Positions 1,241-55,784 of a stretch of DNA of 55,784 nt are shown here, in pieces. The stretch comes from Chiloscyllium plagiosum. Lineage: Eukaryota. The notes below the pieces were generated by a model. That model was given only the letters and a program-made list of their open reading frames with translations. It ran no database searches and had not been told where the DNA came from. The position numbers were made by a program, and so were the translations under genes. The stretch is taken from the NCBI RefSeq assembly GCF_004010195.1, contig NC_057719.1, positions 31,321,304 through 31,377,087 of the forward strand, read 5' to 3'. Each line of letters opens with the position of its first letter. The stretch's first letter is position 1.

Positions 1241-3294
1241 CGCGTGTTCTTAATTAGACAGATAACAGTGAAAGGCAATAATTCGTAAGGAAGAAAAGTT
1301 AATTGACAGGTCTGTGTACGCTTAAATAATCACTCCTGCAGGCCCTAAGTCATTCATCAGGTGGGGAAAAACATACCCAGCTGAGTTAGACACCTGCTAG
1401 CAAGATAAACTCCTATCATAAAGAGGCACCAGTCTGAGCTAATTGGAGAGTTCATAAGGTAAACTTGCACAGCTCAGGTGTCTGATACTATTGTTTTACA
1501 AAATGGTCTCTTAGCAAGGAGGGCAAACTTTTCATCATAAAATGGCTTCCTGACACATATGCCAGAGTCTCTTCAGTGTTAGGCTTAGAATAATTTCTAA
1601 GCTAGGACCACACTCTTGCTCTTTAAACACTGAATCATTCTGTACCTGAGACTGAGATGTTACCATAAGGTTGTATTTAAACTGATTCATTAGTCTTTGA
1701 ATTAAATATGCTTTCTTTTCAGGGTTGTGATTCAAATTCAAATAAGACATAAGATTTGATTAGTTAGAATTGAGTGGGGCAGTCTGTCAGGTCTGTAGAG
1801 TGGGATGCAAGAACAGCAAGAAAGTTAAAGCTTCATCAATAGTACCTTCAGAGTTTGTACTTAATAACATGTAGTGGCTACTCGATATTATCATAAAATC
1901 CCAAAATGCCATTAAATTCAATCCACAGCAGGTAAGCACTGAGTTAATTTTCTACTGGCTCCAACAGCCTTAGCACTAAAATAATCTCTGTCTAGTGTCC
2001 TTTTGAGCTCTCAAGCCAGGGTCTTGTAACGGCAAAGTTTTTTTTGTCTGCCCCGCTTGCAAGAGTTAATAAGAATCCATTATAACTGACAGGATCTGAC
2101 CATTAATTACAAAGCTTTTGATAGTACGGAGTTTCATTTCAGGGTCATTCACTGATGCTAAGGCAAATGTTCTTAATTTTCTTGGTGAGCCCAGATGTCC
2201 TTGTCTTCTGTATTCCTTGAATTCCCCTTCTCTTCTTTCCCCCCACACCTCCCCTTCTGAGCCTTCCTACCTGACTATTTTCTAGTGCAGTAAATGTGTT
2301 CTATAATTCAGCATTCTGTTTTAGTCTAAATGTTTAAAGACAAGTTTTTAATGCTATGGACTTTCTCACTGTGGCATATCTAATAATTGAGGCAATGTGG
2401 AAGGCATATAGAGTTTGGTCTGCACATTTGTGTAAGTGCACTTCAAGGTGACCGATTTTTATAACTTGTATATTGATGGGCGACAACACGGCTGATTAGT
2501 GATGGGAAGCACTGTATTAAAGTTACTTATGACTTTGACTAGCAATTAAACTGGATGTTAATTAATACTTCATGCATTGGACAATGCAATTACTGCATTT
2601 TTAAAATGTTACTATGCTGTCCTGTCACATCTGGGAGTTGAAGCTAGATTCTAATGCTGGAAAATTTTAGACACTGAATTGTCGGAAATAAGTTGGTGTC
2701 AACCCTGGTGACATTGTAGTGAGTGTCGGACAAGTGGAGCAGATGGATAGTTGTCGTTAATGGAATGATCCTCATTTGACAGCATCTTAGAAAGGGTTTG
2801 CTTAATTGATGTTGAAGCACTGGAAGCTAAATGATACAAAGTTGGTTCATGTCCTATTCTTAAAATATTGCCACTGATTCTGTCCCAAAAATAGCATTTG
2901 TTTAAACATTTGTCGGATCCATTATTGATACACTTTGGGCCTTTCCGTACACTTTTTGTGGCTTTAGGAATTAATTGCCTTCCAACTTAAGTCATGTTCG
3001 GGCTTCATACAAAGCTGTTAAAGAGGATTTAATATAGCACAGTATGGGACCTTGAAGTTGTGCTGACCTTTTATCCTACTCCTTAAGATCAAACTAACCT
3101 ACGTACCCTTCACTTTACTATCCTCCATGTGCCTATCCAAGAATCGCTTAAATGACTCGAATGTATCTGACCTCTCTCCTAAAACGTCTTCTAATCACCT
3201 TTAAATTTGGAAGGATTAAAAAGAGCAAATGTTATCAAAAGATTAAATTCAACGGAACATTTCTGGAATCAATTAACTACTTATGTTTGAGTAG

Positions 3295-3425
3295 TAGGAA
3301 GTGAGGACTGCAGATGCTGGAGATCAAAGTTTGGCACTGGAAAAGCACAGCAGGTCAGGTAGCATCCGAGGAGTAGGAGTGTCGACTTGTTGGGCACAAG
3401 CCCTTCATCCGGAATCATCATTCCT
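3295..3425 (-). mobile_element. Penelope-like terminal repeat fragment (family A) with degenerate hammerhead core
   Basis: Reverse complement of the family A repeat at 35560-35694; core decayed to CGGATGA…CAACAA. Confidence 0.7.
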
Positions 3426-4083
3426 GCAGATTTTATACACCTGAAGGATATATTGGGTGTCTACCAATGTCACCACTGAAGTAATTTCTACAAATTCTGT
3501 TGCTTGGAGATGACTTCACATTTGGATACAGTAAATGTAGGAGTGATTTGTTTCTGTTCATTTGGTCGTGTTAGTGTGCTCTTCTGGCTCTGTCTAGCTG
3601 TCTTTATTTTTTTTTTAATTGCTGTTGTCAATGCTGGTAGTTCCTCAGTTATAATTATGCAGTTGGGTGTTGTGCGATTAGCTATATTGTACCCAGATTT
3701 GTAGTAATAAAGTCTGTAATGTACTGATAACGGATGGTTTAAGGTTCCCTATTACACTGTTTATATGAAGTGGCTTTATGGTCAGAAAGCCCCTACATTT
3801 ACTAGTAGGATTAAATTAACACTGTATGCTAGAGCTGGTAAGAAAGAGGGTGAATTGTGCAGACTTGATACAATAATATAACTGTGATATTTTGTGATTG
3901 GTTTCGAATACTTTAATAGCTCACTCCAAATTTGAAGTCATATTTAACTCCATGGATAGTAGTCCAAAGCATCCTGTTCTCCTCTGTATCTCTGAATTTT
4001 AAAATGCTGTTTATTATGTATATTCATCCTTCTACAATGTTTTGCTTGCCCCAAGAATGTCATTAATATTTCTTTAAATTCAG

Positions 4084-10455: not shown

Positions 10456-10825
10456 CAGCTCTTTAAGAAAAAATGTAAAAGGTTTGTTATTTCTTTAAAG
10501 GTTGAGGAAGAAGTTGAAAGCATTCTGTTTTGTAAAAATAAAAAGGACAGATAATAGAACTACACTTGAAACTACTATAAGAGGTTTCATGTTTACAATA
10601 TTTTCACCATCATAACATCTTATAACCTTTCTCCATTACACAAAATCTGATTAAAAGGTTCTACAGTAAGATCTAAGGTTCAAGTTGAGTTCACAGTCTG
10701 GTTTATCTGCATTTGTAATTAAATAATGTGACAAATTCACTGAATTACAAAGAGAAAAACACAAGATTATATTTTAAATGGAAGGATATAGATAAGTTTG
10801 GAAGAATAGGCAACATCATACCACA

Positions 10826-11009
10826 GTCTAGATTAGAATGGTGCTGGAACAGCACAGCAGGTCAGGCAGCATCTGAGGAGCAGGAAAATCAATGTTGCCC
10901 GAAATGTCGATTTTCCTGCTCCTCTGATGCTGCCTGACCAGCTGTGCTTTTCCGGCACCACTCTAATCTAGACTCTGATTTCCAACATCTGCAGTCCTCA
11001 CTTTTGCCT
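10826..11009 (+). mobile_element. Penelope-like fold-back mini-element (family A) with TSD
   Basis: ~70 bp inverted arms plus ~35 bp tail; flanked by AACATCATA(C/T)CACA at 10812-10825 and 11010-11023. Confidence 0.8.
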
Positions 11010-11089
11010 AACATCATATCACAAACTTGCTCAGAGCCCGAATTATTTATTCTAATTTATAAAACACTGCTACTGTATCAGATTCTTAC

Positions 11090-14788: not shown

Positions 14789-14789
14789 G

Positions 14790-28159: not shown

Positions 28160-29375
28160 CACAATATACATCAATGATTGGACAAAGGAATTGAATGTTA
28201 TATCTCCAAATTTGCAGATGACACTAAACTGGGTGAAAGTGTGTGCTGTGAAGAGGAGGCCAAACTGCTGCAGAGTGACTTGGACAGACTGGCTGAATGG
28301 GTAAAATGCATGCAATATGTAATAGATCAATGTGAGGTTATCTGCTTTGGTTGCACAAACAGTAAGGCAGATTATAATCTGAATGATAGCAGTTTAGGAA
28401 AGGGTGAGATGCAATGAAATCTGGGTCATGGTGGAATAGTTGCTGAAAGTTGGCATGCAGGTGCAGCAGGTGATAAGGAAAGCTAATATCATGCTGACCT
28501 TCATAGCAAGAGGATTTGACGATAGGAGTAGGGATGCCTTACTGCAGTTCTACAGGATCGAAGGATGTGGTGTTGGAAAAGCAAAGCCGGTCAGGCAGCA
28601 TCTGAGGAGCAGGAGAGTCGACGTTTTGAGCATAAGGTCTTCATCAGCTCTTTTTCATGACTGATGAAGAGCTTATGTTTGAAACATCAACTCTCCTGCT
28701 CCTTGGATGCTGCCTGATCGGCTGTGCTTTTCTAGGACGACACTCTTCGACTCTGATCTCCAGCATCTGTTGTCCTCACTTCCTGAAGTTATACAGGCCT
28801 TACTGAGGCTACATCTGAGTATTGTGTACAGTTTTGGTCTCCTAATCTGAGGAAGGACTTTCTTGCTATTGAGAGAGTCCAATGAAGGTTCACCAGACTG
28901 AATCCAGGATAGCAGACTGACATATGAAGACCGACTGGATCGACTGGACTTGTACTCACTGGAATTCAGAATAATGAGGGGGTAATCTCATAGAAATATA
29001 TAAAATCCTGATGGGACTGGATCACCTAGATGCGGGGAAGAATGTTCATAATGTTGGGAAAGTCCAGAACTAGGGGTCACAGTTTAAAATAAGGGGTAAA
29101 CCATTCAGGACCAAGATGAGGAAAAATGTCTCCACTCAGAGAGTATGAAACTGTGGAAAGCTATCACAGAAAGCTGTTGGGACCATTTCATTAGATATAT
29201 TTAAGAGGGAGCTGGACATGACCCTTATGGCTAAAGGGATCAAGCGGTATAGAGAGAAAGTGGGAGTAGAATACTGAAATTGCATGATCAGCTATGATCA
29301 TATTGAATGGTGGTGCAGGCTCAAGGGGCTGAATGGCCTACTCCTGCACCTATTTTCTCTGTTTCTATGTTTCTA
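28160..29375 (+). mobile_element. CR1-type LINE 3' half, interrupted by a Penelope-like element
   Basis: ISKFADDTKLG motif; ends in a TTTCTATG-type tail. Confidence 0.85.
28557..28786 (+). mobile_element. Penelope-like fold-back mini-element (family A) with two back-to-back hammerhead cores
   Basis: Inverted arms; TCATCAG at 28641-28647 and CTGATGA at 28661-28667; TSD AGTT(C/A)TACAGG at 28546-28556 and 28787-28797. Confidence 0.82.
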
Positions 29376-30250: not shown

Positions 30251-30381
30251 CTGCTCAACAAATTATTGAAACGATGGGAGAAAGCAAACAAAAAGTTTTT
30301 TTTAAGCAAAAGGACTGGTACTGGTAGAAATATTAAAACTACTTCACATATTTAAATTGATTGAAATGAAATTTTAATTAC

Positions 30382-30655
30382 TTGTGGTGAGCAAGTTGTT
30401 GGACCCATTCATCAAACTTTTCATGGGAAAGATTTTGCTCCACATGTTCTAGTTTCCCGTCTGCAGGCAAGATGGCGATCATTGATGCATTTCCAAGGTA
30501 AGGAAGTTTTATTACTTTACTGAAAAGATTGTAGTCAGATATCATACTGAACCGATTGGTTTGGCGCATCATTTGCACAGTTACGTCTGTAGTTTTGTTC
30601 ACTTTAAATAATGTTTCTCGAGTCTGCGCTGGATCAAATGGATTCTCCCATTTTC
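30382..30655 (-). CDS. SERPINA1: Alpha-1-antitrypsin-like serpin, coding exon 2
   Basis: 274 nt, phase 1/2; (G)KWENPFDPAQTRETLFKVNKTTDVTVQMM…LPYLGNASMIAILP…QQLAHH. Confidence 0.92.
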
Positions 30656-31197
30656 CTGTTAAACATAAATTTGTCAGAGTTTGACAGAGTACATTCGACA
30701 GAAGAAGTCAGCCATAGTTAATTCTTAATGATTAATTCAGAAAAATAGTTGTAATTGGAAAGTATGTGTGAGAATATTGTTACAGTGTTAGGACACGTTT
30801 GTGCACTATATTATGCTAATAGCCAGAGTTATTGTCAATGACATCAGATGATGCCAGATCCCATGTAGCTGGAACATCAGGGAAGAATATTCTAATAAAG
30901 TCTTGCTAAAGTTTATCTTTATAAATTGTCAGCAAATGTTCACTGGTTTGCACCAGCACTGTTTCAGCTTTCTTCTATCAAAGGAACTCAGAATTCAGCT
31001 ATGATACTAATAGAACTTGGAGCTTGAAATTCTGCACTGGCCCATTCACACTGAAACTGTGAGTGGTGGATAATGGAGCAGAATGCTCCATCAGGATTCT
31101 GTTCCCTGGAAAAGAAGCCAGGAAATTTCATTAAGATAGGTTATGGGTGATCTTCTGCCTGTCATTTCTACTTCACAGGGGGCATGTCTCAATAAAT

Positions 31198-33392: not shown

Positions 33393-34723
33393 TTTATTTG
33401 ACAAGATTACAGTGCATTGAATGTAGCAGGCCATGGCAAAGCAAATATGTTGGCATAGAGTCAGATTTGCTAATCTGGGGAAAAGATGAGAGGAACATGA
33501 GCTATAGGAAACAGAATGATTCTAAGACTGAGAGCTCACAGTTGTGTGGATAGACTATAGGAGCTGGATCTGAGAACAGAGAAGGCACATAGAAGATTTG
33601 ATAAAAGTATTTCAAGTCATGAGATAACTAGAGTAAACAAAGGGAAACTGTTTCCAATGGATGAAGGGCATGAATTCAAGGCAATTGGTAAAAAAGAATC
33701 AGATGACATTAGGAAAATAAATTATTTTATGCAGCAACTAATTAAGGTTAGGAATTCAGTGCATGATAGGGTGGTGGAATAGATTCATGGGTAGCTTTCC
33801 AAGGAAGTTTGGATATAATTTGAAAGAAAAAAATAGGGCATTGGAGCAAAAGTGGGGTTAACTGGATTGTTCTTTGAAAAACCTACTGCTGTCTTAATTG
33901 ACTATACAAATTCACTCAATGCTGTGTTATTCTATAATTTTGGGATTTTTAGAGAAGATATGATTCTCCTCCGGAAAGAAATAGAACAACAAATCTCAGA
34001 ACAAATAACAGACAATCTGATTGTAATGTCAATTATTTCATGAGCCTAGATGTCTAATCCCTTATGTTAGTTGTTATGCTGCAATATTTTCCCCAGAATG
34101 GTGTACCATGCTAAACAGAAAAGGTACAATCTGACCTTGAGGGTGAACAGCAGAATGACACTATCTATTATATGTATAACCATTACAGTATAAAAGAACA
34201 TTATTTGATCCATTAGTGTTTTACCAGTATGTTTCCTTTGAAGTAGTTCTTTTCACAATGTGAGCTATTATTCTAATCCCACATTCCTGCTTGTTTCCCA
34301 TGCCTTTCAATATTTCTATTTTCCAAGCATTGATTTCACTACTTTTTATAAGTGTTTATGGATTCTACTGCAACTAATATTCAGCAGGAGTTCCAAAGTC
34401 GAATTTCCCTGTAAAAGTTACCGTTCAATCTTTGTTTTAAATTAGGTTTTATGAATAGACTTTCAGAAGATGCGGATCAAAAATTGCTCTTGTGGTGCAA
34501 AGCTCACCAAAGATTTGTAGCTTTGTATATTTATGTAGATTATCAGCAAAGTAGATTTTGCTAAAAGACAGTTAAGAGTTTAATTTTAAAAGGCAAAATC
34601 TCCAAAGTAATAATCTTTGGATTACAACCTGAGCCACGAGCAAATTGACATATTGTGGATAAAGTCAAAATGTATGCTGCTGGAAAAGCACAGCCGATCA
34701 GGCAGCATCCAAGGAGTAGGAGA

Positions 34724-34758
34724 GTCGACGTTTCGGGCATAAACCCTTCATCAGGAAT
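34724..34758 (-). ncRNA. Minimal type-I hammerhead ribozyme motif (family A), intact core
   Basis: Minus strand: attc-CTGATGA-A-GGGT-TTAT-GCCC-GAAA-C-GTC-ga. Confidence 0.65.
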
Positions 34759-35563
34759 GTTGAGGAGGGGGTGTGGAATGTGTGCAAGGGGGCCGAGAGA
34801 TAAATAAGTGGGGTGTGGGGCTTGGGTGGCTGGTAGCTAGGGAAGTGATAGGTGGATACAGGTGGGAGTGATGGTTATAGGTCAGAGTGGGGGGTGGAGT
34901 GGATAGGTGGGAAGAAAGAGGGATAGATAGGACAGTTCAAGGGTGATGCCGAGTTGGAGGGTTGGATCTGGGATAAGATGGGGGAGGGGAGATGAGGAAA
35001 CTGGTGAAATCAATGTTGATGCTGTGTGGTTGGAGGGTCCCAAGGTGGAAGATGAGGCGTTCTTCCACCAGGCATCGGGTGGCTTAGATTTGGAGGTGGA
35101 GGAGCCCAGGACTTGCATGTCCTTGGCGGAGTGGGAGGGGGAGTTGAAGTGGTTGACCACAGGGTGGTGGGGTTGTTTAGAGCGTGTGTCCCAGAGATAT
35201 TCTCTGAGAACATCTGTTCTCTCTCCCGGTCCTTCTTCACTACCAAATCCGAGCCACTCGATGTCTGGAGGAAGAACGCCTCATCTTCTACCTTGGGACC
35301 CTCCAACCACACAGCATCAACATCAATTTCACCAGTTTCCTCATCTCCCCGCCCCCCCACCTTATCCCAGATCCAGCCCTCCAAATCGGCACTGCCCTCT
35401 TGGACTGCTCCTGCCTGTCCATCTTCTTTCCCATCTATCTGCTCCACCTTCTGCTCTGACCTATCACCATCACCCCCCACCTGCATCCATCTCTCACCTT
35501 CCTACCTTCCCCACCCCCTCCTATTTATCTCTCAGCCCCTAGGGCACCCCCAACCCCCGCCAC

Positions 35564-35598
35564 ATTCCTGATGAAGGGTTTATGCCCGAAACATCGAC
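35564..35598 (+). ncRNA. Minimal hammerhead ribozyme motif (family A), GUC changed to AUC
   Basis: CTGATGA-A-GGGT-TTAT-GCCC-GAAA-C-ATC. Confidence 0.55.
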
Positions 35599-35829
35599 TC
35601 TGCTGCTCTTCAGATGCTGCCTGACCTGCTGTGCTTTTCCAGCACCACACATTTTGAGACTGATGTCCAGCATCTGCAGTCCTCACTTTCTCTTATATTG
35701 TGGATAAAATCAAGGACTTCAGTGCATGGCTCAAAGATTGGTGTGGGTAGAATAGCCTTCCACTCATGGGGCTGTTCTGGTGGAATGGGCTTCACTTGGC
35801 CTGTGCTGGGACCAGTGCTCTGGCTAATC

Positions 35830-38738
35830 AGATGACAAGAGCTATGGAGAGGACTTTAAACTAATTAGAGGGGGGAGTGTTGGGGGAGAGGTGGAAAGTA
35901 GACTTACATAGCAAGAGATTGCGGCAGACTTACAGGGTAGCAATTTGCATAATGGTACCCAGGAAGGGACTGAGTATATAAACATAGAGGAAAAGTAGTA
36001 AATATGGTGAAAGGGGGACATAACAGTAAAAATGTGTGTAGTATTCAAAACAATATGGATGAAATAACTGCACAAATTCAATTTAATACATGCGATCTTC
36101 TAGCCACTACTGTGATGTGGTTACAAGGAAATCAAAGCTGGGAACTAAATATTCGGGGGTAAGAGATTTTTCAAATGTCACACAGGAAGGAAAGAGTGGC
36201 AGAGTAGCATTGTTAGTATGGGTTGGGATAAATATGACAGCAAGAAATTACCTTGAATCGAACCATATAGAGTCAATATTAGCGGAGGTAAGAGAAAGGG
36301 AATGAAGACACCGGTAGGAGAAGTCCATAGACCCCTTAACAATAACTATGTGCTGGGACAGAGAATAAATCAAGAGATAATGAAGACATATGCCAAAGAC
36401 AGTACATTAATTATAGGTGTCTTTTTAATTTTCTTGGAATTGGGATAGTCAGATTGGCTAAGGAAGCCATGCGGAAGAATTCAAGGTGTGTATTTGGGAC
36501 AGTTTCCTCAATATTGTAGATTCAGTCAGGGATTTGACTATCTTGAATCTAGTGGTGTGTAATGAGGCAGTTTTAATACATGATGTCAGAGTAAAATATA
36601 CTCTTGACTCTGATCTCCAGCATCTGCAGTCCTCACTTTCTACTAGAATAAAATATCCCTTTGGAAACAATGACTATAACATGGTCAAATTTATCAATCA
36701 GTTTGACAGGGAAGAACTTGAGTCAGAAACAACAAGATCTGGTTTAAATAAGGGTATTACAATGTTAGAGCTCACTGGAACAAACTGGGAAAGGAGTCTA
36801 GCAGCAGAGACAATTGAGGAACAATGGTAGACTTGCAAGAAAATAGTTCATAGCTCACAGTGAAGACATTATTCCAGTGAAGAAGCATGGTTCTAGGAAA
36901 GGGATATACTAACCATGCTTAACTGGGGAAGTTAAAGATAGCATCAAACTGAAAGAAAAAACACATATAATGTGGCAAAGATTAGTGGTAAGCTGGAGGT
37001 TTGGGAAAATTGTAAAAACCAACAAAAGCTAACCAAAAAACAAAGAGAAGACGAAAATAAACTTTGAGGATAAACTTGAAAGGAATATCAAAATGCATAG
37101 TAAAAGCTACTTTACGTATATAAAAAGGAAGAGAGAAGTCAAGGCAAACATAGGTCGCTTTAGAGAATAAGGCTTGGGAAGCATTAATGAGGAGGCAGAA
37201 AATGGCAGAAAATACATCAGCCTTGACATTAGAAGACACTAATAGCATCCCAAAATTATTAAATATTCAAGGAGCAAAAGAAGAGGCAATAAGTACATTG
37301 ATAATTACTAGAGGAAAAAGTGTTTGAGGAAACTAACGGGCATAAAGACTAGTAAGTCCTGATGGGATGCAGCCAAGGATATTGAAGAAAGTAGTTACAG
37401 AGGTAATGGTTGCACTGGTAGTAAACCTCTTGGAATTCTTTGATTCCAGAAACATCCCAGAGGATTAGAAAGCTGCCAATGTAACACTTTTATTCAGAAA
37501 TAGAGGAGACAGAAGTTAGGAACTCTACAGGCAAGTAGCTTAATAGCTGTTATGGGGAAGTGTCAGAGTCTGGTATACAGGATACAATAACAGAGCATTT
37601 AGATATATACAATAAGATTAAACAGAGTCAGCTTAGCTTCATGAAGGGGAAGTCATGACTTACAAATTTACTACATTCTTTGAGAAAGTAACAAGCAAGG
37701 GGAAGCAATGGATGTAATTTGGATTTTCAGAAGGTATTTGATAAGGTGCCAAACATTAGGCTACTTCATGATATCACACGGTGATGGGAGTAGTATATTC
37801 ACATGGATAGAGGATTGGATAATTAATACAACACAAAGTTGGAATAAGAAGGGAATTTTCAGGGTGGCAATCTCAAATTCATGGAGTGCCACAGGGATCA
37901 GTGTGGGACCACAGTTATTTACATTATGTATTAAATTCTTGGATGCAGAAACTGAATGTACTATAACTTGTGGATGAGACAAAAATAGGCAAATGGTGCA
38001 AAAACTAGCAGATGGAATATAATATGGGGAAGTATGCACTTTGCCAGAAAGAATATTGGAACAGAATATTATTTAAATGGGGAAAGACTGCAGAAAGCTA
38101 TAGAAGAAAGCTTTGGGAGTCCTTGTCCAAAAATCACCAAAACAGCTTAGCATCTGAATTCGTCAGCTAATGGGGAAGGCAAGTGGAATATATAAGTAGG
38201 GATGTTTTCCTAAACCTACAAGGCACTGGTCAGCCCATAGCTAGAATACTATGAATAGTTTTGGGCCCCTTACAAGTAAAGGAAAAATTGGAGGAAGTCC
38301 AGTGAATGTTCCCTCAGCTGATAATGGTATGGAGGACTGTCTTATGAGAAGAGGTTGAGTAAATTGGGCCTGTACAAGATTCTTAGGAGACTTGACAGAG
38401 TAGATACAGAAAGATTGTTGCCCCTTATGGGAAAATCTAGGATAAGTGGGCATACTCTTCGGATAAGATGTGACACATCTTAAGACAGTTGAGGAGGAAT
38501 TAATTCTGTCAGAGGTTGTGAATCTGTGGAATTATTTACTAATAATTTACTAAGGATTTTTGAGGTTGAGTCATTAAGTATATTCATACAGAATAGACAG
38601 ATTTTTAATCTGTAAGGGAATCAAAAGTGATGAAAAAAGGCAGGAAAGTGGAGTTGAGTATTATCAGAACAACCATGATCTTGTTGAATGCTAAGACAGA
38701 CTCAGTGGGTTGAATGACCTTCTTCTCTTGTGGCCTAA
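35830..38738 (+). mobile_element. Old CR1-type LINE, long degenerate copy (endonuclease to 3' end)
   Basis: Decayed ORF2 motifs (ILNLVVCNE, GKS.LTNL, DFQKVFDKVP, SGVPQGSV.GPQLF). Confidence 0.75.
36597..36643 (+). mobile_element. Tail-only Penelope-like (family A) insertion
   Basis: GACTCTGATCTCCAGCATCTGCAGTCCTCACTTTCT flanked by AGA(G/A)TAAAATAT. Confidence 0.6.
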
Positions 38739-39435: not shown

Positions 39436-39935
39436 TTGTGATTTTGAGCTCTTCAACCATCTTGTTTTTCACGTTAGCTTATTTCATTTGAACTGCATAA
39501 TGGCTAGTTCACATCTTTAATGTCAATGTCCCCATCAATAAATAATCTAAGTGCCTATGAGGTTGATTGCACTTTAGTTCATTATAAAACTGGAAAAGGG
39601 GCTCTTCCGATCAGCCTTTATATCAATATTACATGATGATAAAGTCCAATTTCACTGAACTAAATGTAAATGAAATTGTAGATGTTGTTAGTTAAAGTTT
39701 CCATAATAAATATTTAAATAAAATTATTGATACCTGTTACATTTATAAAGCAGAAGAATTTCTATCAAATGATTAAAACAGATCTTTATATTGTGCAAAA
39801 TATCAACAAAGGTGTTTAACTATTTTCACATTACGATCATAGATTTTATAATAGTTGATGCATTACATACAAAACATTCAACAATAAAAATTATGTATCT
39901 TTAAAAAAATGTATCAACAATAAAAATTGATTTAC

Positions 39936-40572
39936 CTTTAAAAAAGATGTAATTAATTAGCATTAGTTTGGTTGAACGGTCAATTGTGTCAAACATGTTT
40001 TTAATTTTCCCTTTTGTCATCTTTTTCACATAATCATTCAGCTGTAACCTGGCATTTTCAGGATCCAGATTGAAATCTAGAGAAAACACCTCAGCATTGT
40101 AAAACTTCTTGGACTCATTTAGAAAGCTTGGCAACACATCATAGCCTTTTTGAATATGAAGAGAGTTTCCCATTAATAGCTGAAGCTCATTTTGTTCTGC
40201 CATCAGGGACTGTAAGAGTTGCTTGTAGTCCCTGTTCATTTCAGCTATTCTTTCCTCTGTCATACTATCAAGGTGAAGTCCCTTGAAAAGCTGCTCACGT
40301 GTCACAGATCTGGTACCCAGAGACAATAAGGCTAAAGCGGTGGAAATACTCATAGGGGAGAAGAAAATATTGGAAGTAGTCTGGTTAGCAATTTCTTTGT
40401 AGAGCTGAAAAGCAAAATCAGTGTTTGCAGAAGAAATCATTGCCAAAGCAGATTCTTGCCCATGATTTTGAAGGTCTTCTGCATGGTTGACATGTTGTTT
40501 CTTCTTTGTTGCAGAAACGTCTGTTCCAGTGACAAGAGTAACGACTAATAGCAAAATTACAGGAGGGAGCAT
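39936..40572 (-). CDS. SERPINA1: Alpha-1-antitrypsin-like serpin, first coding exon (signal peptide; 416 aa in total)
   Basis: Acceptor at 40604, GCCATG at 40572; MLPPVILLLVVTLVTG…NTDFAFQLYK…NIFFSPMSISTALALLSLG…LINYIFFKG|gt. Intron phases 1,2,0 match the clade-A (V2) serpin pattern; the four exons sum to 1251 nt. Confidence 0.93.
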
Positions 40573-40829
40573 GGCTTCTATCAATTCTCTTGCTTTCAAG
40601 GCTCCTGTTTTCAATAGAAGAACAGTTAAATATTTCATAGTTTATTTCTTTTTCCATCTTCTTTATAAATTACTTTTTCTGAGGCAAACCCCACTCCCTA
40701 CATTCCCCATGCTGTAATTTACCATGTTGAAATATTGGGAAGTTATCTCTTCCCAGACTTCTGAAAATGAAATTTCAACTCTTCTATTGAGAAGAATTCA
40801 CCAACAAGAAGAATAATTGCATTTATATA

Positions 40830-41037
40830 AAGTTAAAAATCACACAACACCAGGTTATAGTCCAACTGGTTTAATTGGAAGCACACTAGCTTTCGGAGCG
40901 ACGCTCCTTCATCACCTGATGAAGGAGCGTCGCTCCGAAAGCTAGTGTGCTTCCAATTAAACCTGTTGGACTATAACCTGGTGTTTTGTGATTTTTAACT
41001 TTGTACACCCCAGTCCAACACCGGCATCTCCAAATCA
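40830..41037 (+). mobile_element. Penelope-like fold-back mini-element (family B), young, with TSD
   Basis: ~86 bp near-perfect inverted arms with 2-nt centre, 35-bp tail; perfect 12-bp TSD TGCATTTATATA at 40818-40829 and 41038-41049. Confidence 0.88.
40913..40947 (+). ncRNA. Minimal type-I hammerhead ribozyme motif (family B), intact
   Basis: cac-CTGATGA-A-GGAGC-GTC-GCTCC-GAAA-G-CTA-gtg: stem I cac/gtg, 5-bp stem II, palindromic AGCU stem III, CUA triplet. Confidence 0.72.
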
Positions 41038-43077
41038 TGCATTTATATAGAGCACTAATATAGCAAAACCTACTAAGTGTTTCACAGTGTTGTGAACAAG
41101 TATGACATGAGTCAAATAAGGGGAGATAAGGTCAGATGACCAAGTCATTGGTCAAATAAATAAGATTCTAGGGGTGTATGGGTGTTGATTTACTCATTAG
41201 ATCTCCAAATAGCTTAGAGTGCAATATTATGGGTAGGTGTACGTTTTACAAAACTCTTTCACATCAGTTTGGCTGCAGGCAGTACTTACTGGTATGATTT
41301 CAGTGGATGAAAAATTATGGACAGCATGCCCACTGTTATCTAACATATATTAGGTGAATATAACCATCTACTAGTGATGCAGGAACTTTCAACATTTACT
41401 GTAAAGCATTATTAGAAGATTGAGAAATTGGAATATCTGTCCACTACAGAATTCAATGGTCAGCAGTCATTTTGTGATTGAAAAAAACTCTAATTAGAGA
41501 GCTCTGCAAGGATTCAGAACTAATTTGAAATCACACATTAGGTAATCGTACATTCTTAAGATCATGAACATTATCAGTCGTTCCCAAAGATGTTGGCCGC
41601 ATCCATTTTAGAATTGTTTAAAAGTCCATTATCAATTTTTTCAACAATCATTATACATTTAAATCATTCTTTTCTATGTCACAATCATTCTCAGCTTCAG
41701 TCATGTACTGCTCTTCAAATTGTACTGCTATGCTGACACTGTTTTTACTTCAATAGGACATTCTTTTTGAACATGTCGATCTCTTGTGTTGCTGCCCTGC
41801 ACCCCCAACATTAGATTGCTTGTTGTATATATTTCCTACATTCAACTGTTAGAGGCCAACTTTTCAACAACTGTCTTTTGTAAGTCCATCTGATCTTGTT
41901 ATCTTGCTTCACTCGCAATGGACAAATAGTTGGGAAATTGCTGTGATGATAATATTAATAACAAACACCATAAACTCTACTCATGAGCGACTTTGTTCTT
42001 CAGTAACAAATTTACAACACAATTTACTGCACAAAATAAGCAGAGAACGTTGCATATAATGTCTTTTTGTCTGATATATTACTTGATTTTTAATAAGGTT
42101 CTGTGATCCATGAATATATTATGGATAATCTAAATTACATGCTTAAAAAGTCATTTCAGAGAAACTGTCAATCCCCTCCCACCAGTTTGATGGAGGCCGA
42201 TTCATGATAATTAGCTGTTCAACATTTTTATTGACGTTTTCCATGGAGCAACATAAAAATGACACTGATCATGTAATGTCGTAAGTCATTCACACCATAA
42301 TTTACAATGGTATCTATACCATAACAATGACAGACTATTGAAGTACTATTGCTAGTCTTAAGAAATGTTGACCTTTTTAAAAATAAGATGAAGCAACAGT
42401 TGAAGAAGCAAATGATAGAGGCTGTACACAATAGAACAGCAGAAAAAAATTAGTCAAATACGTTACTGGTTACTGTAGTTTTTACAACTCCACAACATTC
42501 CATTTTCTTCAACAGCATTCTTATCCTTAGCTACTAATTAGAGGTAGAGAGAGTAGAGATAAAAAAAGTTCAGGAACAAAGCTTTTCTTTGCAAAAATAG
42601 TGGGTCAGAATTTGCTGAAAAAGTAATAATGCATGAGCTACACACACCATTATTAAAGCTTTAAACAAACAGTTAAGTCTTTACGAATTGCAAATCGACT
42701 AAAGTTGTTGAGCAATTTGTGACGCTTGCCCTGGCTTTGCATAAACAGCACCTCCAATTTTATATCCGTGTGATTTTCCTGAAGTTGCTGCACTCGCATT
42801 CTAATTATCTATTTTAGCATACCACAAATAGTTAACTTTAATAACAGCATAAGTCCCCTGAAATATTGAAGCATTTGTTAAGGACAGGCAATTAAATTTT
42901 TTGAGCCAGAAAGTGAATCATTATAAATATGGAGTTGTGTTCCTTTTTAGTTCTGAATTATTTTGAGATGTTAGAATTGTTGAATTAAATTAACATTTTT
43001 TTCTTATTTGACATTGCTGCCTCCTCTTTCCTTTATGTTTAATGTTTCTTCTCTTCTCCTCAGTATTTACATTGTAA

Positions 43078-44872
43078 AAGGGCAATGTTAGTTGAGAATA
43101 TGGAGTTACAGGCTACAAGATTAGATGGGATTGAGGTTGAGAAAGAGGAGGTTTTAGCAACTTTGGAAGCTCTAAAAATAGATCCGATCCCCTGGCTGGA
43201 TGGGATTTATCCTTGGATTCTCTAGGAAGCCAGGGAGGAGATTGCAGAGCCTTTGTCTTCGATCTTTATGTTATCATTGTCGATAGGAGTAGTGCCAGAA
43301 GACTGGAGGAAAGCAAATGTTGTTCCCTTGTTTAAGAAGGGGAGACGGTACAACCCTGATAATTATAGGCCAGGGAACCTTACTTCACTTATTGGTAAGG
43401 TGTTGGAAAAGGTTATAAGAGATAGGATTTATAATCATCTGGAAAGGAATAATTTGATTAGGGATAGTCAACACGGTTTTGTGAAGGGTAGGTTGTGCCT
43501 CACTAACCTTAATGAATTCTTCAAGAAGGTGCCAAAACAAGTGGATGAAGGTAAAGCAGTTGATGTGGTGTATATGAACTTCAGTAAGGCATTTGATAAG
43601 GTTCCACATGGTAGGCTATTGCACAATACACAGAGTTTTTGGATTGAACATGGTTTAGTGGTTTGGATCAGAAATTGGCTAGCTGAAAGAAGCCAGAGGG
43701 TGGTGATTGATCGGAAATGTTTATCCTGGAGCTCAGTTACCAGGGGTGTGCCACAAGGATCTGCTTTGGGGCTCCTGCTGTTTATCATTTTTATAAATGA
43801 TTTTGTTGTGGGCATGGAATGACAGATTAGTAAGTTTGCGAATGACACTAAGGGAGGCAGGGTTGTGGATAGTGCTGAAGAATGTTGTGGGTTACAGAGG
43901 GACTTAGATAAGATGCAGAGCTGGGCTGAGAAGTGGCAAATGGAGTTTAATGTGGAGAAGTGTGAGGTAATTCACTTCAGAAGAAGTAACAGGAATGCAG
44001 AGTACTGGCTAATGGTAAAATTCTTGGCAGTGTAGATGAACAATGAGATCTCGGTGTCCAGGTGCATAAATTCCTGAAAGTTGCCACCCAGGTTGATAGG
44101 CTTGTTAAGAAGGCATATAGTGTGTTGGTGTTTATTGGTAGGGGGATTGATTTTCAGACCCATTAGGTCATGCTTCAGCTGTACAAGACACTGGTAAGGC
44201 TGCACCTGGAGTATTGCATACAGTTCTGGTCACTACATTGTAGGAAGGATGTGGAAGCTTTGGAAAGGGTTCAGAGGAGATTTACTAGGATATTGTCTGG
44301 TATGGAAAGAAGGTCTTATGAGGAAATGCTGAGGGAACGGAGGTTGTTTTCGTTGGAGAGAAGAAAGTTGAGAAGTGACTTAATCGAGACATATAAGATA
44401 ATCAAAGGGTTATATAGGGTAGGCAATGAAAGCCTTTTTCCTCGGATGGTGAAGGCTAACAGGAGGGAACATAGATTTAGGACCAATATTAGGGGTAGTT
44501 TCTTCACTCAGAGAGTAGTAGGGGCTTGGAACAGCCTGCTTGCAACAGTAGTAGACTCGCTGATGTGATATGCAGGTCAGGTGAATTGGCCATGTTAAAT
44601 TGCCCATAATGTTAGATACATTAGTCAGAGGGAAATGGGTCTGGGTGGGTTACTCTTCGGAGGGTCGGTGTGGACTGGTTGGGCTGAAGGGCCTGTTTCC
44701 ACACTGTAGAGAATCTAATCGAAAAAAAGGGCATTTAAATAGGCATTGGACATACATATGGATAATAATCAAATGGTGTAGGTTAGATGGACATCAGGTT
44801 ATTTTCACAGGTCGGCACAACATTGAGGGCCGAAGGGCCTGTACTGCGCTGTAATGGTCTATGTTTCTATGT
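43078..44872 (+). mobile_element. CR1-type LINE, 5'-truncated RT
   Basis: ORFs 43253-43822 and 44170-44568 carry CR1 RT motifs (VPEDWRKANVVPLFKKG, QHGF, GVPQGS). Confidence 0.92.
44563..44728 (+). mobile_element. HE1-like SINE 3' half nested in the CR1
   Basis: Matches 24675-24848. Confidence 0.8.
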
Positions 44873-44895
44873 TTGTCTTTCTTTTGAACCTAAAT

Positions 44896-45030
44896 TGATC
44901 TGAAGAAGAATCATACTGTACTCAAAACATTAATGCTCTCTGCACAGATTCTGGTTCACTTGCTCAGTTTCTCCAGCATTCTCTGGTTTTAGTTTGGATT
45001 TCCAGGACCTGCAATATTTTGCTTTTATTG
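44896..45030 (+). mobile_element. Old Penelope-like terminal repeat with decayed hammerhead (CTGAAGA core)
   Basis: CTGAAGAAG…AAAACATTA followed by …TTTCTCCAGCATT…GATTTCCAG.A.CTGCA; related to 54833-54930. Confidence 0.45.
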
Positions 45031-45765
45031 ACGTTAAATTCACCTATTCTAATTTACCCATATTTTTCTGTTATTTCCCAATTCCTTAAATATCTGTCTG
45101 TCATCTGTTATTTAACGATGTTATAACTACTTCATCGATCTCTTATGAGCTCACGATTTTCGCAACTCTGTGGGCGAAACTTTTAATACCTAAACATACA
45201 CAAAAAACTTTCCAAAAAAATCTGCCCACTATGTGGGATTCTGCGCTCCATGATCTAGGGAGTCTAGAATGTGATGGGCATGATTCTTCCAACAGTGCTT
45301 CCTGCGAGTACAAAACTCTCGACAAAAACAATTCTATCACCAAAAGAATTCATCATGAGCTATGAAAGGAAAATATAGGTCACAAAACTGTGAAGTTGAT
45401 GAACTGGCTCTTGAGTTCAAAAATTTAACTTCAAATCCCAATGGAAACTAAACTTGTTTGTCAAATTGCAAATCAGCAATTCTTTCACATTGATGAATTC
45501 AATTAAATTAACAACTTGGAGCACAGGACAACAGAGTCACTCCATTCTCCATTCTATGGAGATAGGACTGACTTAAGCTTTAGGGCTTCTTTATATTATT
45601 TCTGTTAATGACTGTTAACTAATACTTTATATGTGAACATTTCCTCTGGAATTTTCAGCATTCTTTAAATTAAACCCAGAGTTTAGTGAAAAAAATGTTA
45701 ATTTCATAGCGTTAGAAAAAAATGTTGTCTCATTCATAATTAGTGCAAATCTGGAGCTATCCAGT

Positions 45766-48580
45766 AGAACAAAGAACAAAGAACAGTACAGCATGCGAAT
45801 TGGCCCTTTGGCCTACCAAGGTTGTGCCAACACGTGATGCCTTCTTAACTGCTCCCCCCACCCCCGAAAAGCCTTTTGCCTCTATACTGTCCTTTTCCCT
45901 CTATTCCCTACCTCTTCATATATCTATCAAGGTGCCTCTTAAACATTGCTATTGTATCGACCTCCACTCCCTCTTCTGGCACTTACCACCTCTGTGTAAA
46001 ACCCTGCCTCTCTCATCTCCTTTGAACTTGCCTCTTTTTACCTTAAACGTAGTAATTGATATCTCTCCCCTCGGCAAAAGACTGATTATCCATTCTACCC
46101 AAGCGCCTCATATGTTTGTAAATGTCAATCGGGTCACCCCTTATCCTTTGATATCCAAGTGAAAAAAATCTGATTTTGTCCAATCTCTCCTCCTAGCTAA
46201 TATCCTCCAAACTAGGCAACATCCTTCTAAACTATTTCTGTACCCTCTCCGACTCCGTATTGTTCTGATAGTGTGGCAACCAGAACTGTACACAATATTC
46301 CAAATGTGGCCTAACCAAAGTTCAATAAAGTTGCAATATGACTTGCCAATCTTTATACCCTATGCCTTGACTGGTGAAGGCAAACATACTATATGTTTTC
46401 TTGATCACTTTATGCCTAGATCCCTCTGTATTTTAATGCTACTAAGAGTTCTGCTATTTACTGTACAATTCCGATCTGCATTATACCTTCCAAAATGCAT
46501 TGCCTTGTATTTATCCAGATTAAACTTCATATGCCATTTTTCCTTCCAAACTTTCAGCCTATCCATAACCTGCTGTATCCTGTGGCAATCCTCCTCACTA
46601 TCCGCAGCTCCCATGCACTTTGTGTCATCTGCAAATTTATTAATCAGGCCACCTACATTCTCCATGAAATCATTTATATCTATTACAAAGATCAGATGTC
46701 CCAGCACTGATTCTTGTGGAACACCACTGGCCACAGAATTCCAATCTGAAAAATACCCTTCCACTACTACTCTCTGCCGTCTGTGACTAAGCCAGCTCTA
46801 TATACATCTTACCAGCTCACTGCAGATCCTTTGTGTTTTCATCTTTTATATCAGCCCCTGTTATGAGGGACCTTGTCAAAAGTCTTGTTAAAATTCAATA
46901 GACAATAGACAATAGGTGTAGGAGTAGGCCATTCTGCCCTTCGAGCCTGCACCACCATTCATTATGATCTCCATAACTCTTGATTCCACTATCCTTGAGA
47001 GCTCAATCCAACTCTTTCTTAAACGAATCCAGAGACTGGGCCTCCACTGCCTTCTGGGGCAGAGCATTCTACCTGCCCACCACTCTCTGGGTGAAGAGGT
47101 TTCTCCTCATCTCTGTCCTAAATGGCCTACCCCATATTTTTAAGCTGTGTCCTCTGGTTCAGGATTCACCCATCAGCGGAAACATGTTTCCTGGCTCCCG
47201 AGTGTCCAATCCTTCTCAATCAGATACATCTCAATCAGATCCCCTCTCAGTCTTCTAAACTCAAGGGGATACAAGCCCAGTCACTCCAATCTTTCAACAT
47301 AAGATAGTCCTGCCATTCCAGGAATTGACCTCGTGAACCTACGCTGCACTCCCTCAATAGCCAGAATGTCTTTCCTCAAATTTGGAGACCAGAACTGCAC
47401 ACAATATTCCAGGTGCGGTCTCACCAGGGTCCTGTACAGCTGCAGAAGAACCTCTTTGCTTCTATGCTCAATCCCTCTTGTTATGAAGGCCAGCATGCTA
47501 TTAGCTTGCTTCACTACCTGCTGTACCTGCATGCTTGCCTTCATTGACTGGTGTACAAGAACACCCAGATTTCTTTGTACTGCCCCTTTACCTAACTTGA
47601 CTCTAAATTGGGTAGTAATCTGCCTTCCTGTTCTTGCCACCAAAGTGGATAACCATATATTTATCCAATTAAACTGCATCTGCCATGCATCTGTCCACTC
47701 ACCTAACCTGTCCAGGTCACCCTGTAATCTCCTAACATCCTTGTCACATTTCACCCTGCCACCCAGTTTTGTATCATCAGCAAATTTGCTAATGTTACTA
47801 TTAATACCATCTTCTATATCATTAATATAGAATTCATATAGACAACATCTACCACCTATTGACAATCATCTTTGTCACCTCCTCAAAAAACTTAATCAAG
47901 TTTGTGAGACATGACCTTTCCCTCACAAAGCTGTACTGCCTATTTCTATTAAGTCCATATTTCCTTGAATGTTAATCCTTTCCCTAAGAATCTTCTCCTA
48001 CCACTGACGTAAGGCCCACTGGCCTGTAATTTCCCAGATTATCCCTGTTGCCTTTCTTAAACAAAGTAAAAACGATGGCCATTCTACATTCCTCTGTCAC
48101 CTCTCTTGTGACTAAATAGTGTACAAGGACTTTGCACGAGGCCCCAGAATTTTCCTCATTTGCCTCCCTCAACATTCTGGGACAGGTCCTGGAGACTCTT
48201 CTACTTTAAATCTTTTCAAAACACTGAACACCACCACTTTTTTATGTCAACATACCCTAGAATATCAGCACCCACCATGTCATTCTCCTTTGTGAACACT
48301 GATGCAAAGTATTCATTAAGGACCTCACCCACGTTCTCTGACTCCAGGCATAAATTCCATCCTTTGTACTTGAGTGGATCTACTCTTTCTATAGCTACCC
48401 TCTTGCTCCTTACATACATTAAAATGTCTTGGAATTTTCCTTAATCCTGTTTGCCAAAGACATTTCATGGCCTCTTTTAACACTCCTAATTCCTTGTTTG
48501 AGTTCTTTCCTGCTATCTTTGTACTCTTCAAGAGCTCTGTCTTCAGTTTCGTAAACCTTAAATATGCCTGCTTTTTCTAA
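45766..48580 (-). mobile_element. CR1-type LINE with a younger CR1 nested at ~46900-47830
   Basis: INKFADDTK and ISKFADDTKLGG motifs; host RT sequence resumes after the insert. Confidence 0.88.
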
Positions 48581-48945: not shown

Positions 48946-49754
48946 GCTATTTTAGAGGTACAGCTTTTCTATATTTTTAAAAATGAACATTTGCTATTAA
49001 TTATTTAACTTATTGTTAAATGAAACTTATTTTGATTTAAACAACATTAACTTAATAATAATATGTACGTTTGAATAAGAGGACATGAGAAGTTTTGCAA
49101 TTAAAAAAAAACAGAATCCTGCTTTTAAATATAAAGAGTTACAAGCACAAAGTCAAAGGCTTGCTAAAATTTAATAAAACATTGGCTAAGGCACCAGCTG
49201 GAGTATTGAGTCCAGTTCAGGGCACCACACTTTGTGAACAATGTCAAGATGTTTGAGAGGTGCAAAAGCTGAGGGTATGGGATTTCAGTTACTTGGAGAT
49301 CCGAATTAAGGTTTTTTTTCCTTAGAACTGGGGTCAGTCTGTGATTTGACAAAGGTTTTCAAAATTAATAGGAATTGATTTAGTAAGTAAGGTGAAACTA
49401 TTTCCAGTAGCAGAAGGGTATATGTTTAAGCTGTTACTAGTCCAGAGCAATTGTGCATATTTGTCCATAATATTTGTCCCAGTTGTGGCATAAGGAGAAA
49501 TTGATGGCCCGCTTTGTGGACAGGGAACTGGAAGTCCCAATGGATGGGGTGATGCAGCTGAGGTCTCTCATCTTCCCCTAGGAACAGCAGAGGAGGTGAT
49601 GTCACTAGGTGCTGCCAGTGTGGTCTGAGGTTGCCATCTATGTCAGTGAGATGGCAACCATCAAGAGGAATGAACAATGAAGGTCAATGATCTTATCTCT
49701 GCCAGGCTAAGTGCCACCTTCTCCTACCTCACACTTGGTCTGTCTCAGAATCTG

Positions 49755-49888
49755 GCCTTCTTCTTGAAGAAGGGCTCATGCCCGAAATGTCGATTCTCCT
49801 GCTCCTTGGATGCTGCCTGACCTCTGCGCTTTTCCAGCAACACATTTTCAGCTCTGATCTCCAGCATCTGCAGTCCTCACTTTCCTCT
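49755..49888 (+). mobile_element. Penelope-like terminal repeat (family A) with hammerhead remnant
   Basis: TTGAAGA-A-GGGC-TCAT-GCCC-GAAA-T-GTC followed by the family A tail. Confidence 0.75.
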
Positions 49889-51198
49889 ACTATGGTTACC
49901 ACCTCTTACCAAACTCTTGTGCTATTGCTGTTTGAGTCAAATGCAACATTTTCTCTCAGACACTTCCCAGTCCCCTCAGACCACTATGTGACTTCTGCAG
50001 CCTCCTATTCACTCACTTAGAACACCTCCCTTCCTGCATCAGCACCAATTTTCATCTCACTTATTCCCACTCTTTGTCTCAGTCAAGGAGAAATCAGCTC
50101 CAAATTTCTCTAAGATGGATGGTGGGGTGCCTGACATTTCACTACTCGTCCCTTAATGTAGAGAGAATCTGTCCGTGACTGAAGTGAGTGGTCAACTGGC
50201 TATGCCCAATCTCCTGGACTGATGACAATTAATGTTGAGTTATTATGCTGGCACTCCCTGCCTGAAAGGTGTCTCTCTTGAACTAACTGCAGACTACTTC
50301 CTGTCGACCTTGAGACATGGCCATTTGGTTGAAGCATATTTGATACAAATGCAGCTGGTACATAGCACATATGCCTACAGCAAAGTATCCACTGTCTCAA
50401 TTGTTCACAGCTGATGACCATGAAAAGCTCTCTGGCTTTGTGTCTGCACTAGCTGCAAGGCAAGAAAGGGCTATTAGATTTGGCAAAGACTGTAAAGTGC
50501 AAAAATGCAAGCCAGGGCTCAGATATGGCAAGCATTAAAGTTGGCAAAAAGTAAGAGATTGTGTAAAGAGCCCTTGGATGTATCCTAGTCCAATCCCTGA
50601 GTTGGATGCTACTCTCTGTGTGTAAAATGTCCAGGCTGTAGCATTTTATTGAGGTCTTGGTGTGTTCCAAAGTGCAGTACTGAAGTACAGTGGATGGGAG
50701 AAGTGCCATAATGGTGCAGTGAGGCTGATATATGTTGGATGCCAATGTCAGTATTTTTTGTATGTGTGAGGATGCTGCCCATGAGTGCGCTATGAAATAT
50801 TGGTGTTCAAGATGGTGATCTGGAGGAGCAAGTGGCAAGCTGGAGTTGCTAGGTAACTGCTCTGATTTCATGTCAAGAAATCTTGGCATAAAGTTTCTAT
50901 CTGACAGGTGAAAGAATGAGAAATTGCACATTGATGAGATGTGAAGGAGTAGCAATGAGGATAATCATGAGCAATATTTCTTGCTAATTGGCATCTCGTT
51001 GCTCACTAGAGAGAATCTTGTCTCACCATCCAACACTTGGTTGAAAATTGACTATTTTTGGACTGTTCAGCAAGTTCTCACTGGATTTTATCACCTGTTT
51101 TTTCCTTCCTAACTTTCAGGGGAAGATTCCACTCAATATAACATTAAAAATGCAGACAGTGACTCTGTAAATGTAATAGTACAACAGCTGTTATCTTT

Positions 51199-54832: not shown

Positions 54833-54930
54833 TTCTGAAGAAGAGTCATACCAGCGTCGAAATGTTAACTCTTTTTTCCTCTCCTCAAAAATAGCCAGAC
54901 CTGTCAAATTTCTTCAGCACTCTGTGTTTG
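54833..54930 (+). mobile_element. Old Penelope-like terminal repeat with decayed hammerhead
   Basis: CTGAAGAAGAGTCATACCAGCGTCGAAATGTTAAC. Confidence 0.45.
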
Positions 54931-55407: not shown

Positions 55408-55784
55408 TGTTGAAAATCATACAACACCAGGTTATAGTCCAAAGGTTTAATTGGAAGCATACTAGCTTTCGGAGTGTCACTCATTCATCAGGTGATAGTG
55501 GAGAGCTCAATCCTAACACACAGAATTTATAGCAAACATTTACAGTGTGATGTAACTGAAATTATACATTGAAAAATCGATTGTCTGTTAAGTCTTTCAT
55601 CTGTTTGAATGCCATGATTGTTTCACTTCTTTCATGTGTAAATCACAAAACCTTTTTTAAAAAGTTGCATTCTCAGGTTAGCTGTTAACAATGGTGATAG
55701 CTAGACAATATGTTGAAGGTGTTAGCCCCCTGTGTTCTCTGTCTATGCCATGATGTTTAGATTGATTCTAATCTAAAAAGTGAG
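55408..55784 (-). mobile_element. Penelope-like element (family B), longer copy running off the right edge
   Basis: 55408-55492 matches the 40830-40914 arm; minus-strand core cac-CTGATGA-A-TGAGT-GAC-ACTCC-GAAA-G-CTA. Confidence 0.78.

Follow-up and report, generated by a model that had tools for sequence, protein, structure and literature searches.

A young hairpin insertion with its symmetry axis at a hammerhead motif has the layout of a Penelope-like element insertion in Chiloscyllium plagiosum

Introduction

A young hairpin lies at 40818..41049 of a 55,784-nucleotide stretch of the Chiloscyllium plagiosum genome (contig NC_057719.1; the whole stretch is called the window, and positions are those of the window). 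It spans 208 bp between its target-site duplications (TSDs), and its two arms meet at the core of a putative hammerhead ribozyme. What kind of event made this hairpin, and why does its axis fall on the ribozyme? In a preliminary description it was regarded as a MITE look-alike that is in fact a product of reverse transcription. Ribozyme structure was thought to set where reverse transcription (RT) stalls or folds back, possibly creating a non-autonomous class of hairpin ribozyme elements.

Penelope-like elements (PLEs) are known to leave related structures. The PLE insertion unit is described in excerpts of PMC3846280 as an inverted pseudo-LTR (pLTR), a 31-bp tail and a TSD of 9-10 bp, and the typical layout is an inverted 5'-truncated copy with a 30-40-bp tail (PMC8557442 and PMC8969392, both in part). 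According to sections of PMC4209133, hammerheads can occur in pairs, one on each strand and spaced by 100-700 bp, and truncated PLEs account for many solo motifs.

Results

Anatomy and age of the focal element

The element has the following parts, with offsets counted from C3 of the hammerhead core.

40818..40829, + strand: left TSD, 12 bp, AT-rich, perfect match to 41038-41049
40830..40914, - strand: inverted arm without a tail; pseudo-LTR end of family A, running from the tail start back to core +2..+6
40911..40920, no strand: native micro-palindrome ATCA-CC-TGAT (helix I 5' strand and core start), symmetry axis and 4-nt microhomology junction
40911..41037, + strand: tailed arm in sense orientation, 123-127 nt; over 89 nt its identity to the 55409 copy is 90%
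40913..40947, + strand: candidate minimal type I hammerhead, strict descriptor match
40915-40916: centre, 2 bases between the arms
41002..41037 (start 41002/3), + strand: one-sided tail, 35-36 nt, 72% A+C
41038..41049, + strand: right TSD, perfect match to the left TSD

Both TSD copies read TGCATTTATATA without a mismatch, and the chance probability of such a pair is ~1e-4 over 400 offset pairs. The arms 40830-40914 and 40917-41001 are identical at 83/85 positions, or are 86 bp long if the last TSD base is included. The perfect 12-bp TSD, the arms of ~86 bp with about two mismatches, the 2-nt centre and the 35-bp tail of the preliminary description were thus all recovered. Since arm identity in the other three palindromes of the window is lower (60/65, 74/91 and 358/420), the focal element is the youngest of them. 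It is a real and recent insertion of repeat family A, probably a dead-end stub of the tail end of a PLE.

We assume that the element is intronic in a serpin gene. The first coding exon, on the minus strand, has its acceptor AG at 40606/40605, which leaves 224 nt to the focal arm (~225 nt had been given before), and the serpin exon matched Pfam Serpin at 2e-49. Minus-strand serpin exons were placed at 30378-30707 and 39901-40605. A signal-peptide-like start is seen in the first coding exon, and the frame at 30378 is serpin-like by eye. Elsewhere in the window we noted a GC-rich 26-bp minisatellite of ~34 copies (19860-20848), a near-perfect tandem duplication of 127 bp with 98% matches (22459-22719) and a GC-rich exon-like frame on the minus strand (14405-14845), which we take to resemble the beginning of the peptidyl-prolyl isomerase FKBP3. 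Fragments of decayed LINE reverse transcriptases, 65-80% alike and presumably CR1/L2-like, are numerous at 16714-18574, 31197-32992 and 43225-48478.

The hammerhead motif and the symmetry axis

The focal descriptor match consists of a helix I of 3 bp, the core at 40916-22 (C3 at 40916), a helix II of 5 bp, GAAA at 40937-40 and a minimal helix III that is palindromic, with a predicted cut after 40944. The strict descriptor had two matches in the window, both inside repeats of families A and B, and 1 of 200 shuffles gave any match. The claim of a complete minimal hammerhead on the + strand is upheld at the level of sequence. An Rfam search returned 0 families at the gathering score. Like the metazoan PLE pLTR hammerheads described in part of PMC4209133, the motif is of type I, with an extra base before helix II, a G-C closing pair and a palindromic minimal helix III. 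It differs from them in that its helix I has only 3 bp and that it is known from sequence; sharks are unnamed in the portion of PMC4209133 compared.

The copy of the core on the minus strand, which is the serpin direction, lacks C3. When the transcript of the whole element was folded, it reached -150 kcal/mol and the probability of helix II was 1e-18, compared to 0.83 in native sense RNA. In RNA that spans the entire hairpin the ribozyme is therefore predicted to be buried and unable to fold.

Reads and contigs were mapped to the second family A copy, at 55409. Family A is abundant in two species, with 15,583 contigs mapped in sample X1 and 16,107 in X14 from another species; RNA runs X21, a poly(A) single-cell library, and X22 gave 2,579 and 0 reads, respectively. 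The axis ATCA-CC-TGAT is native family A sequence, present in the second copy and in most family reads. The five bases upstream of C3 are the same in the focal element and the 55409 copy, and a differing base at the matching place made up 9-11% of the summed contig depth (26,484 of 249,556 for X1; 22,229 of 256,705 for X14) and 30% of the RNA reads (230 of 764). Because ATCAC at 40911-40915 is native, the focal junction floats within the 4-nt microhomology: the tailed arm starts somewhere in -5..-1, the tail-less arm ends somewhere in +2..+6, and the last 4 bases of the inverted arm are the shared microhomology. It had been stated that the minus copy is cut exactly at the first C of the core; with a floating junction this point is indeterminable. 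Of random junctions in the window sequence, 2.4% have at least 4 nt of microhomology; the share is 3.8% for those near the diagonal.

Other insertions in the window

BLAST with ten window queries identified 8 insertions with 12 arms, 2 insertions of family A and 6 of family B. Besides the focal element they are as follows, each with the short name used below.

55409..55784, - strand: second family A copy (55409), tail-less, with at least 293 nt upstream of the core, reaching the window end
34650..35713, + strand: family B long palindrome (34664), carrying the putative GIY-YIG end of a PLE ORF
28546..28797, + strand: family B palindrome (28557), both arms ending at ~+1 of the core, 13-nt filler between them
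10812..11023, + strand: family B palindrome (10826), arms ending at +16 (tailed) and +23 (tail-less), no core in either
49753..49890, + strand: family B sense stub (49755), from -3, ~5 non-native inverted bases at the 5' junction, no convincing TSD
3292..3426, - strand: family B sense stub (3296), from -4, 7-8-nt inverted patch at the 5' junction, absent from the preliminary description
36588..36656, + strand: family B stub (36597), ~45 nt (tail and ~10 nt) between 12-bp TSDs, no inverted arm

Remnants of a third family at 54835 and 44886 were excluded from all counts. They belong to an old hammerhead-like repeat (54835-54935 and 44886-44991) with a core variant and a 61% match between both places.

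TSDs of 11-19 bp (11, 12, 12, 14 and 14-19) flank 5 of the 8 insertions; at 3296, 49755 and 55409 a TSD was sought and none was found. The layout of the focal element, with TSD, had been reported for 10826, 28557 and 34664, and it holds at all three: 10826 has a 14-bp TSD with one mismatch and ~1 nt of junction homology, 28557 an 11-bp TSD with one mismatch, and 34664 a TSD of 19 bp with one mismatch or of 14 perfect bases, with a short filler at the junction. A miniature version had been claimed for 36597 and 49755 and was seen at neither. The TSD is present at 36597, where the look-alike bases overlap the target, and 49755 has nothing beyond its few inverted bases and no convincing TSD. The tail is 35-36 nt in family A and 33-34 nt in family B.

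At 34664 the joins are at -336 (tailed arm) and ~-460 (tail-less arm), and the tail-less arm carries ~120 nt of native coding sequence that is absent from the tailed arm. In 28557-28784, with arms identical at 74/91, the 13-nt centre resembles templated fill-in from the arms; its tailed arm starts at +1, or at -5 if two changed letters are allowed. The centres of the four palindromes all differ (4-nt microhomology, ~1 nt, 13-nt filler, short filler), and the proposal that identical short palindromes recur at several loci found no case among the 4 in the window.

Identity of families A and B

With a 58-residue piece of family B as the query, 6 proteins matched at an E value of 0.001 or lower, and in 4 of the 6 the motif is alike. 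A search from one of these, P0005, picked out 15 longer proteins from 78 candidates; the top two are named from whale shark and zebra shark. The Pfam scan covered 5 of the 15. P0010 matched RVT_1 at 22.7 bits (E 9e-5), below the Pfam cut-off of 29.6, and GIY-YIG at 23.2 bits (E 9e-5), just above the cut-off of 22.6. Its identity to the window pieces is 59-66%, and tblastn placed its residues 378-457 on the inverted arm and 415-456 on the sense arm of 34650..35713. Another of the proteins, P0011, continues into the hammerhead region, hence the motif sits downstream of the family B ORF. These matches tie family B to a predicted PLE protein with reverse transcriptase and GIY-YIG parts. The Cys-rich linker of P0010 suggests the Neptune or Nematis type, following the description in part of PMC8557442. 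In the ESM Atlas, GIY-YIG clusters at 0.91-0.92 were obtained for part of P0005, which we regard as a lead. Pfam found 0 families in three short family B translations. Contigs of viral, metagenome and prokaryote genomes were also scanned for motifs of families A and B and contained no such locus.

No ORF of family A was recognised within the window, which the longer copy at 55409 leaves first. We infer from its anatomy that family A is a PLE too: it has the ribozyme type, the tail and the offsets from the core in common with family B (tail start +87 in A and +91 in B, tail end +122 and +124). The insertions show an inverted truncated copy adjoining the sense 5' end, a tail of 30-40 bp, a variable TSD and a pLTR hammerhead recognised by its sequence, as in PLEs. 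Upstream of 55576-55577 the reads and contigs diverge, sharing one loose end, which points to a second family A subfamily with another upstream region.

Arm ends gather at the front edge of the core

With families A and B pooled, 4 of the 7 tailed arms in the window start at -5..+1 from C3, and 6 of the 12 arms, from 4 of the 8 insertions, end within -5..+6. The tailed arm of the 36597 stub starts at ~+83. Under a fitted exponential truncation model, finding 4 of the 7 starts within some 7-nt interval has p = 0.003, a post hoc value for n=7 and two families; across three assumed means it varied from 0.0004 (longer mean) to 0.023 (shorter mean). The native sequence of family B upstream of the core comes from one insertion. 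A plot of breakpoints against the core and the NUH site had been suggested, and within the window it shows this clustering at the front edge, with 0/12 arms ending at the cleavage site (+29). Ribozyme self-cleavage as a cause of truncation is ruled out by the latter count.

The statement that most short copies fold back near the core stands for these 4 of 7 tailed arms. It is partly circular, since only 122-124 nt separate the core and the tail end in the two families. The joins lie at -336 and ~-460 at 34664, and at +16 and +23, without the core, at 10826; 55409 runs more than 290 nt upstream of the core.

The genome-wide reads were also considered. Summed contig depth of family A in X1 was 1.1-1.7 million at 45-90 nt upstream of the core and 1.3-1.4 million downstream; depth is not copy number, and with this limit the equally high upstream depth means that many family A copies extend past the core, a result that runs counter to the preliminary description. 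Strand-change joints numbered 4 among the 15 joints listed of 32, and none was at the core, which is a weak test with short de Bruijn contigs on a diverged reference. In open-licence papers we found no report of PLE breakpoints clustered at the hammerhead, nor of the present shark family.

Why the arms end there may be explained in four ways. A good candidate, to which we give somewhat less than even weight, is that the element RNA has its 5' end a short way upstream of the core. A stall of reverse transcription at a folded or protein-bound ribozyme is possible and less likely; capture by microhomology is unlikely, and so, to the same degree, is chance or ascertainment. Ends do gather at the front edge, but that ribozyme structure sets the stop is only one possibility: the focal axis is explained by native microhomology, and an upstream RNA 5' end fits equally. 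Penelope transcription starts within the repeat, 46 bp before an intron (PMC2377424, in part), and the end of the Penelope intron abuts helix I (PMC4209133, in part).

Polyadenylation of family A RNA

Two further features concern RNA ends.

40956..40976, + strand: ATTAAA as poly(A) signal at 40956-61, the poly(A) site of the family at ~40974-76, then a GU/U-rich stretch
40875-40870, - strand: mirrored poly(A) signal on the serpin's strand, ~270 nt upstream of the first-coding-exon acceptor

In run X21, a poly-T loose end was seen in 652 reads at the corresponding position of the 55409 copy, ~13-15 nt past ATTAAA, in genomic sequence that is not rich in A. These reads are family-wide and are assigned to family A, not to the focal locus. 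Family A sense RNAs are polyadenylated between ribozyme and tail (55434-55454 in the 55409 copy). As RNA polyadenylated there is without both RT start sites, the template of the insertion was presumably an RNA reading through the poly(A) site. The depth of the family A RNA reads does not fall across the ribozyme cut site, and no accumulation of molecule ends is among the features listed; a cleaved 3' piece of 30 nt would escape a library of this kind. The mirrored signal in the serpin direction could in principle end some serpin transcripts early.

Discussion

The layout of the focal element is that of a published PLE insertion product and not of a new kind of element. We think that the hairpin probably records a single recent target-primed insertion of a family A PLE, in which two cDNAs were joined by microhomology. 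The element endonuclease would make a 12-nt staggered cut in AT-rich DNA, and both free 3' ends would prime reverse transcription on element RNA uncleaved by the ribozyme. One start, at the tail end, would give the tailed arm and the other, at the tail start, the tail-less inverted arm. Both cDNAs would halt at the front edge of the hammerhead, and their complementary 4-nt ends ATCA and TGAT, native there, would anneal and join them; the hairpin would then be created at insertion itself, as a dead-end stub. The two cDNAs, the annealing step and family A's own ORF are what we infer here. That the template was uncleaved is shown by both arms, which extend across the cut site. The last 4 bases of the target match the template at 3, 3, 3 and 2 of 4 positions in the four left ends (11/16, by eye), as expected with an annealed primer. 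Experiments in vitro with a PLE protein showed cutting and extension of both DNA strands, a preference for AT-rich targets and two RT start sites that bound the tail, with ribozyme cleavage not required (PMC11167929, in part).

Could one cDNA have made both arms? The tailed cDNA would fold back at the micro-palindrome, prime the second arm and then be cut or joined at the tail boundary, which yields an identical product for the focal copy. The focal centre, a native 4-bp stem with a 2-nt loop, and the greater length of the tailed arm fit such a course, and the tailed arm is at least as long as the other in 3 of the 4 palindromes. Such synthesis does take place, as is shown by short snap-back patches where 3296 and 49755 have their 5' junctions, and palindromes have been reported, and self-priming proposed, at Penelope inverted junctions (PMC3846280, in part). 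However, fold-back cannot produce 34664, with a tail-less arm that is ~120 nt longer; it has ~1 nt of homology to work with at 10826 and meets a 13-nt filler at 28557; it would have left unused the stronger native hairpin of helix II 9 nt away; and the fixed tail boundary is directly explained by a second RT start site. The longer tail-less arm of 34664 and the left-end target bases that match the template are the reasons why we favour two cDNAs, and we consider fold-back doubtful.

That the hairpin is itself a non-autonomous ribozyme element, transcribed and retroposed as a unit in the manner of retrozymes, appears very unlikely to us. It is young (2 arm mismatches), short and bounded by TSDs, it carries a full minimal hammerhead on the + strand, and non-autonomous PLE derivatives are known in retrozymes (bioRxiv 10.64898/2026.07.22.740005, in part) and Chlamys elements (PMC8557442, in part). 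But the centres differ in all 4 window palindromes; within 10826 and within 28557 the two arms agree in variants that the other copies lack, an indel in the former and letters in the latter. The ribozyme would also be buried in the -150 kcal/mol hairpin of the unit's own transcript, and no tandem array of the focal unit occurs within the window. The class proposed in the preliminary description is therefore not supported by the four different centres, the published PLE layout and the predicted misfolding. The non-LTR retrozymes are short, non-coding, hammerhead-bearing and PLE-related like the focal element, but in the sections of that preprint compared they are head-to-tail tandems with a ribozyme per unit, whereas the focal copy is head-to-head with one intact core.

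Two further readings concern the reality and the class of the hairpin. Perfect hairpins are a known assembly hazard, and an assembly fold-back or a later rearrangement of a longer copy might give one; we rejected this as highly improbable, since it would not yield a 12-bp TSD, two arm mismatches and a tail boundary equal to that of the independent 55409 copy, and 0.86-0.87 of the words of 40300-41500 are present in runs of two samples, one of which may be the source of the assembly. A DNA-transposon MITE with long terminal inverted repeats is suggested by a short, non-coding element with near-perfect inverted arms between direct repeats. The 36-nt tail at one end, outside the inverted repeat, and the variable TSD length (11, 12, 12, 14 and 14-19 bp) refute it, and it has practically no chance of being right; in cut-and-paste DNA transposon superfamilies the TSD length is fixed. 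Copies are moreover 5'-truncated at varying places, and a long sister copy encodes a putative GIY-YIG end. With a one-sided tail and TSDs of 11-19 bp, termini of the DNA-transposon kind were not what we found, and the asymmetric tail, the variable TSDs and the RT and GIY-YIG protein match of family B support the earlier view that these elements look like MITEs and are retro-products.

The insertion by two cDNAs may be compared with known systems. The EN+ PLE insertion unit, as described in parts of PMC3846280 and PMC8557442, has in common with the focal element the TSD, the inverted, tail-less truncated copy, the sense copy and the one-sided tail of 30-40 nt, as well as a palindrome at the inverted junction and an AT-rich target. 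The focal unit differs in being only 208 bp long without an ORF, and in that its junction lies on the front edge of the ribozyme, which is unmentioned in the PLE descriptions compared. For Poseidon of Anolis (PAc) in vitro, two tail-bounding RT starts, extension of both strands and an uncleaved RNA template are as proposed here, and the ribozyme lies ~110-120 nt upstream of the tail end, as in the focal family (PMC11167929, in part). On the other hand, 5' joins are unaddressed in the sections of PMC11167929 compared, and the family B linker suggests a Neptune or Nematis type.

The symmetry of the hairpin deserves a separate comment. In LINE-1 twin-priming inversions two cDNAs from two target ends are joined through short microhomology and the TSD is kept. 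There the second primer anneals at variable internal sites, and the arms are not mirror images. The focal arms, unlike those, are mirror images because both RT starts are fixed 35 nt apart.

A bolder and tentative reading, which we hold to be possible though rather unlikely, is that the pseudo-LTR of shark PLEs behaves like a retroviral R. RNA would start just upstream of the hammerhead, and the 3' copy would be polyadenylated between ribozyme and tail. The two tail-bounding RT starts would run off the RNA 5' end, leaving cDNAs of ~125 and ~85 nt, and if these failed to jump to the 3' repeat they would anneal at the micro-palindrome into a 200-bp hairpin. The contig depth of family A, as high upstream of the core as downstream, speaks against this strong-stop reading.

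The focal hairpin is a clean young example of a published pattern and is useful for annotation, since such hairpins are easily misfiled as MITEs. If the clustering of ends reflects the start of the RNA, the stubs would make the completion of PLE reverse transcription and the formation of pseudo-LTRs testable from genome sequence alone. If the strong-stop reading is true, hairpins of this kind would map, as fossils, where PLE transcription starts, and would record a strand-transfer step.
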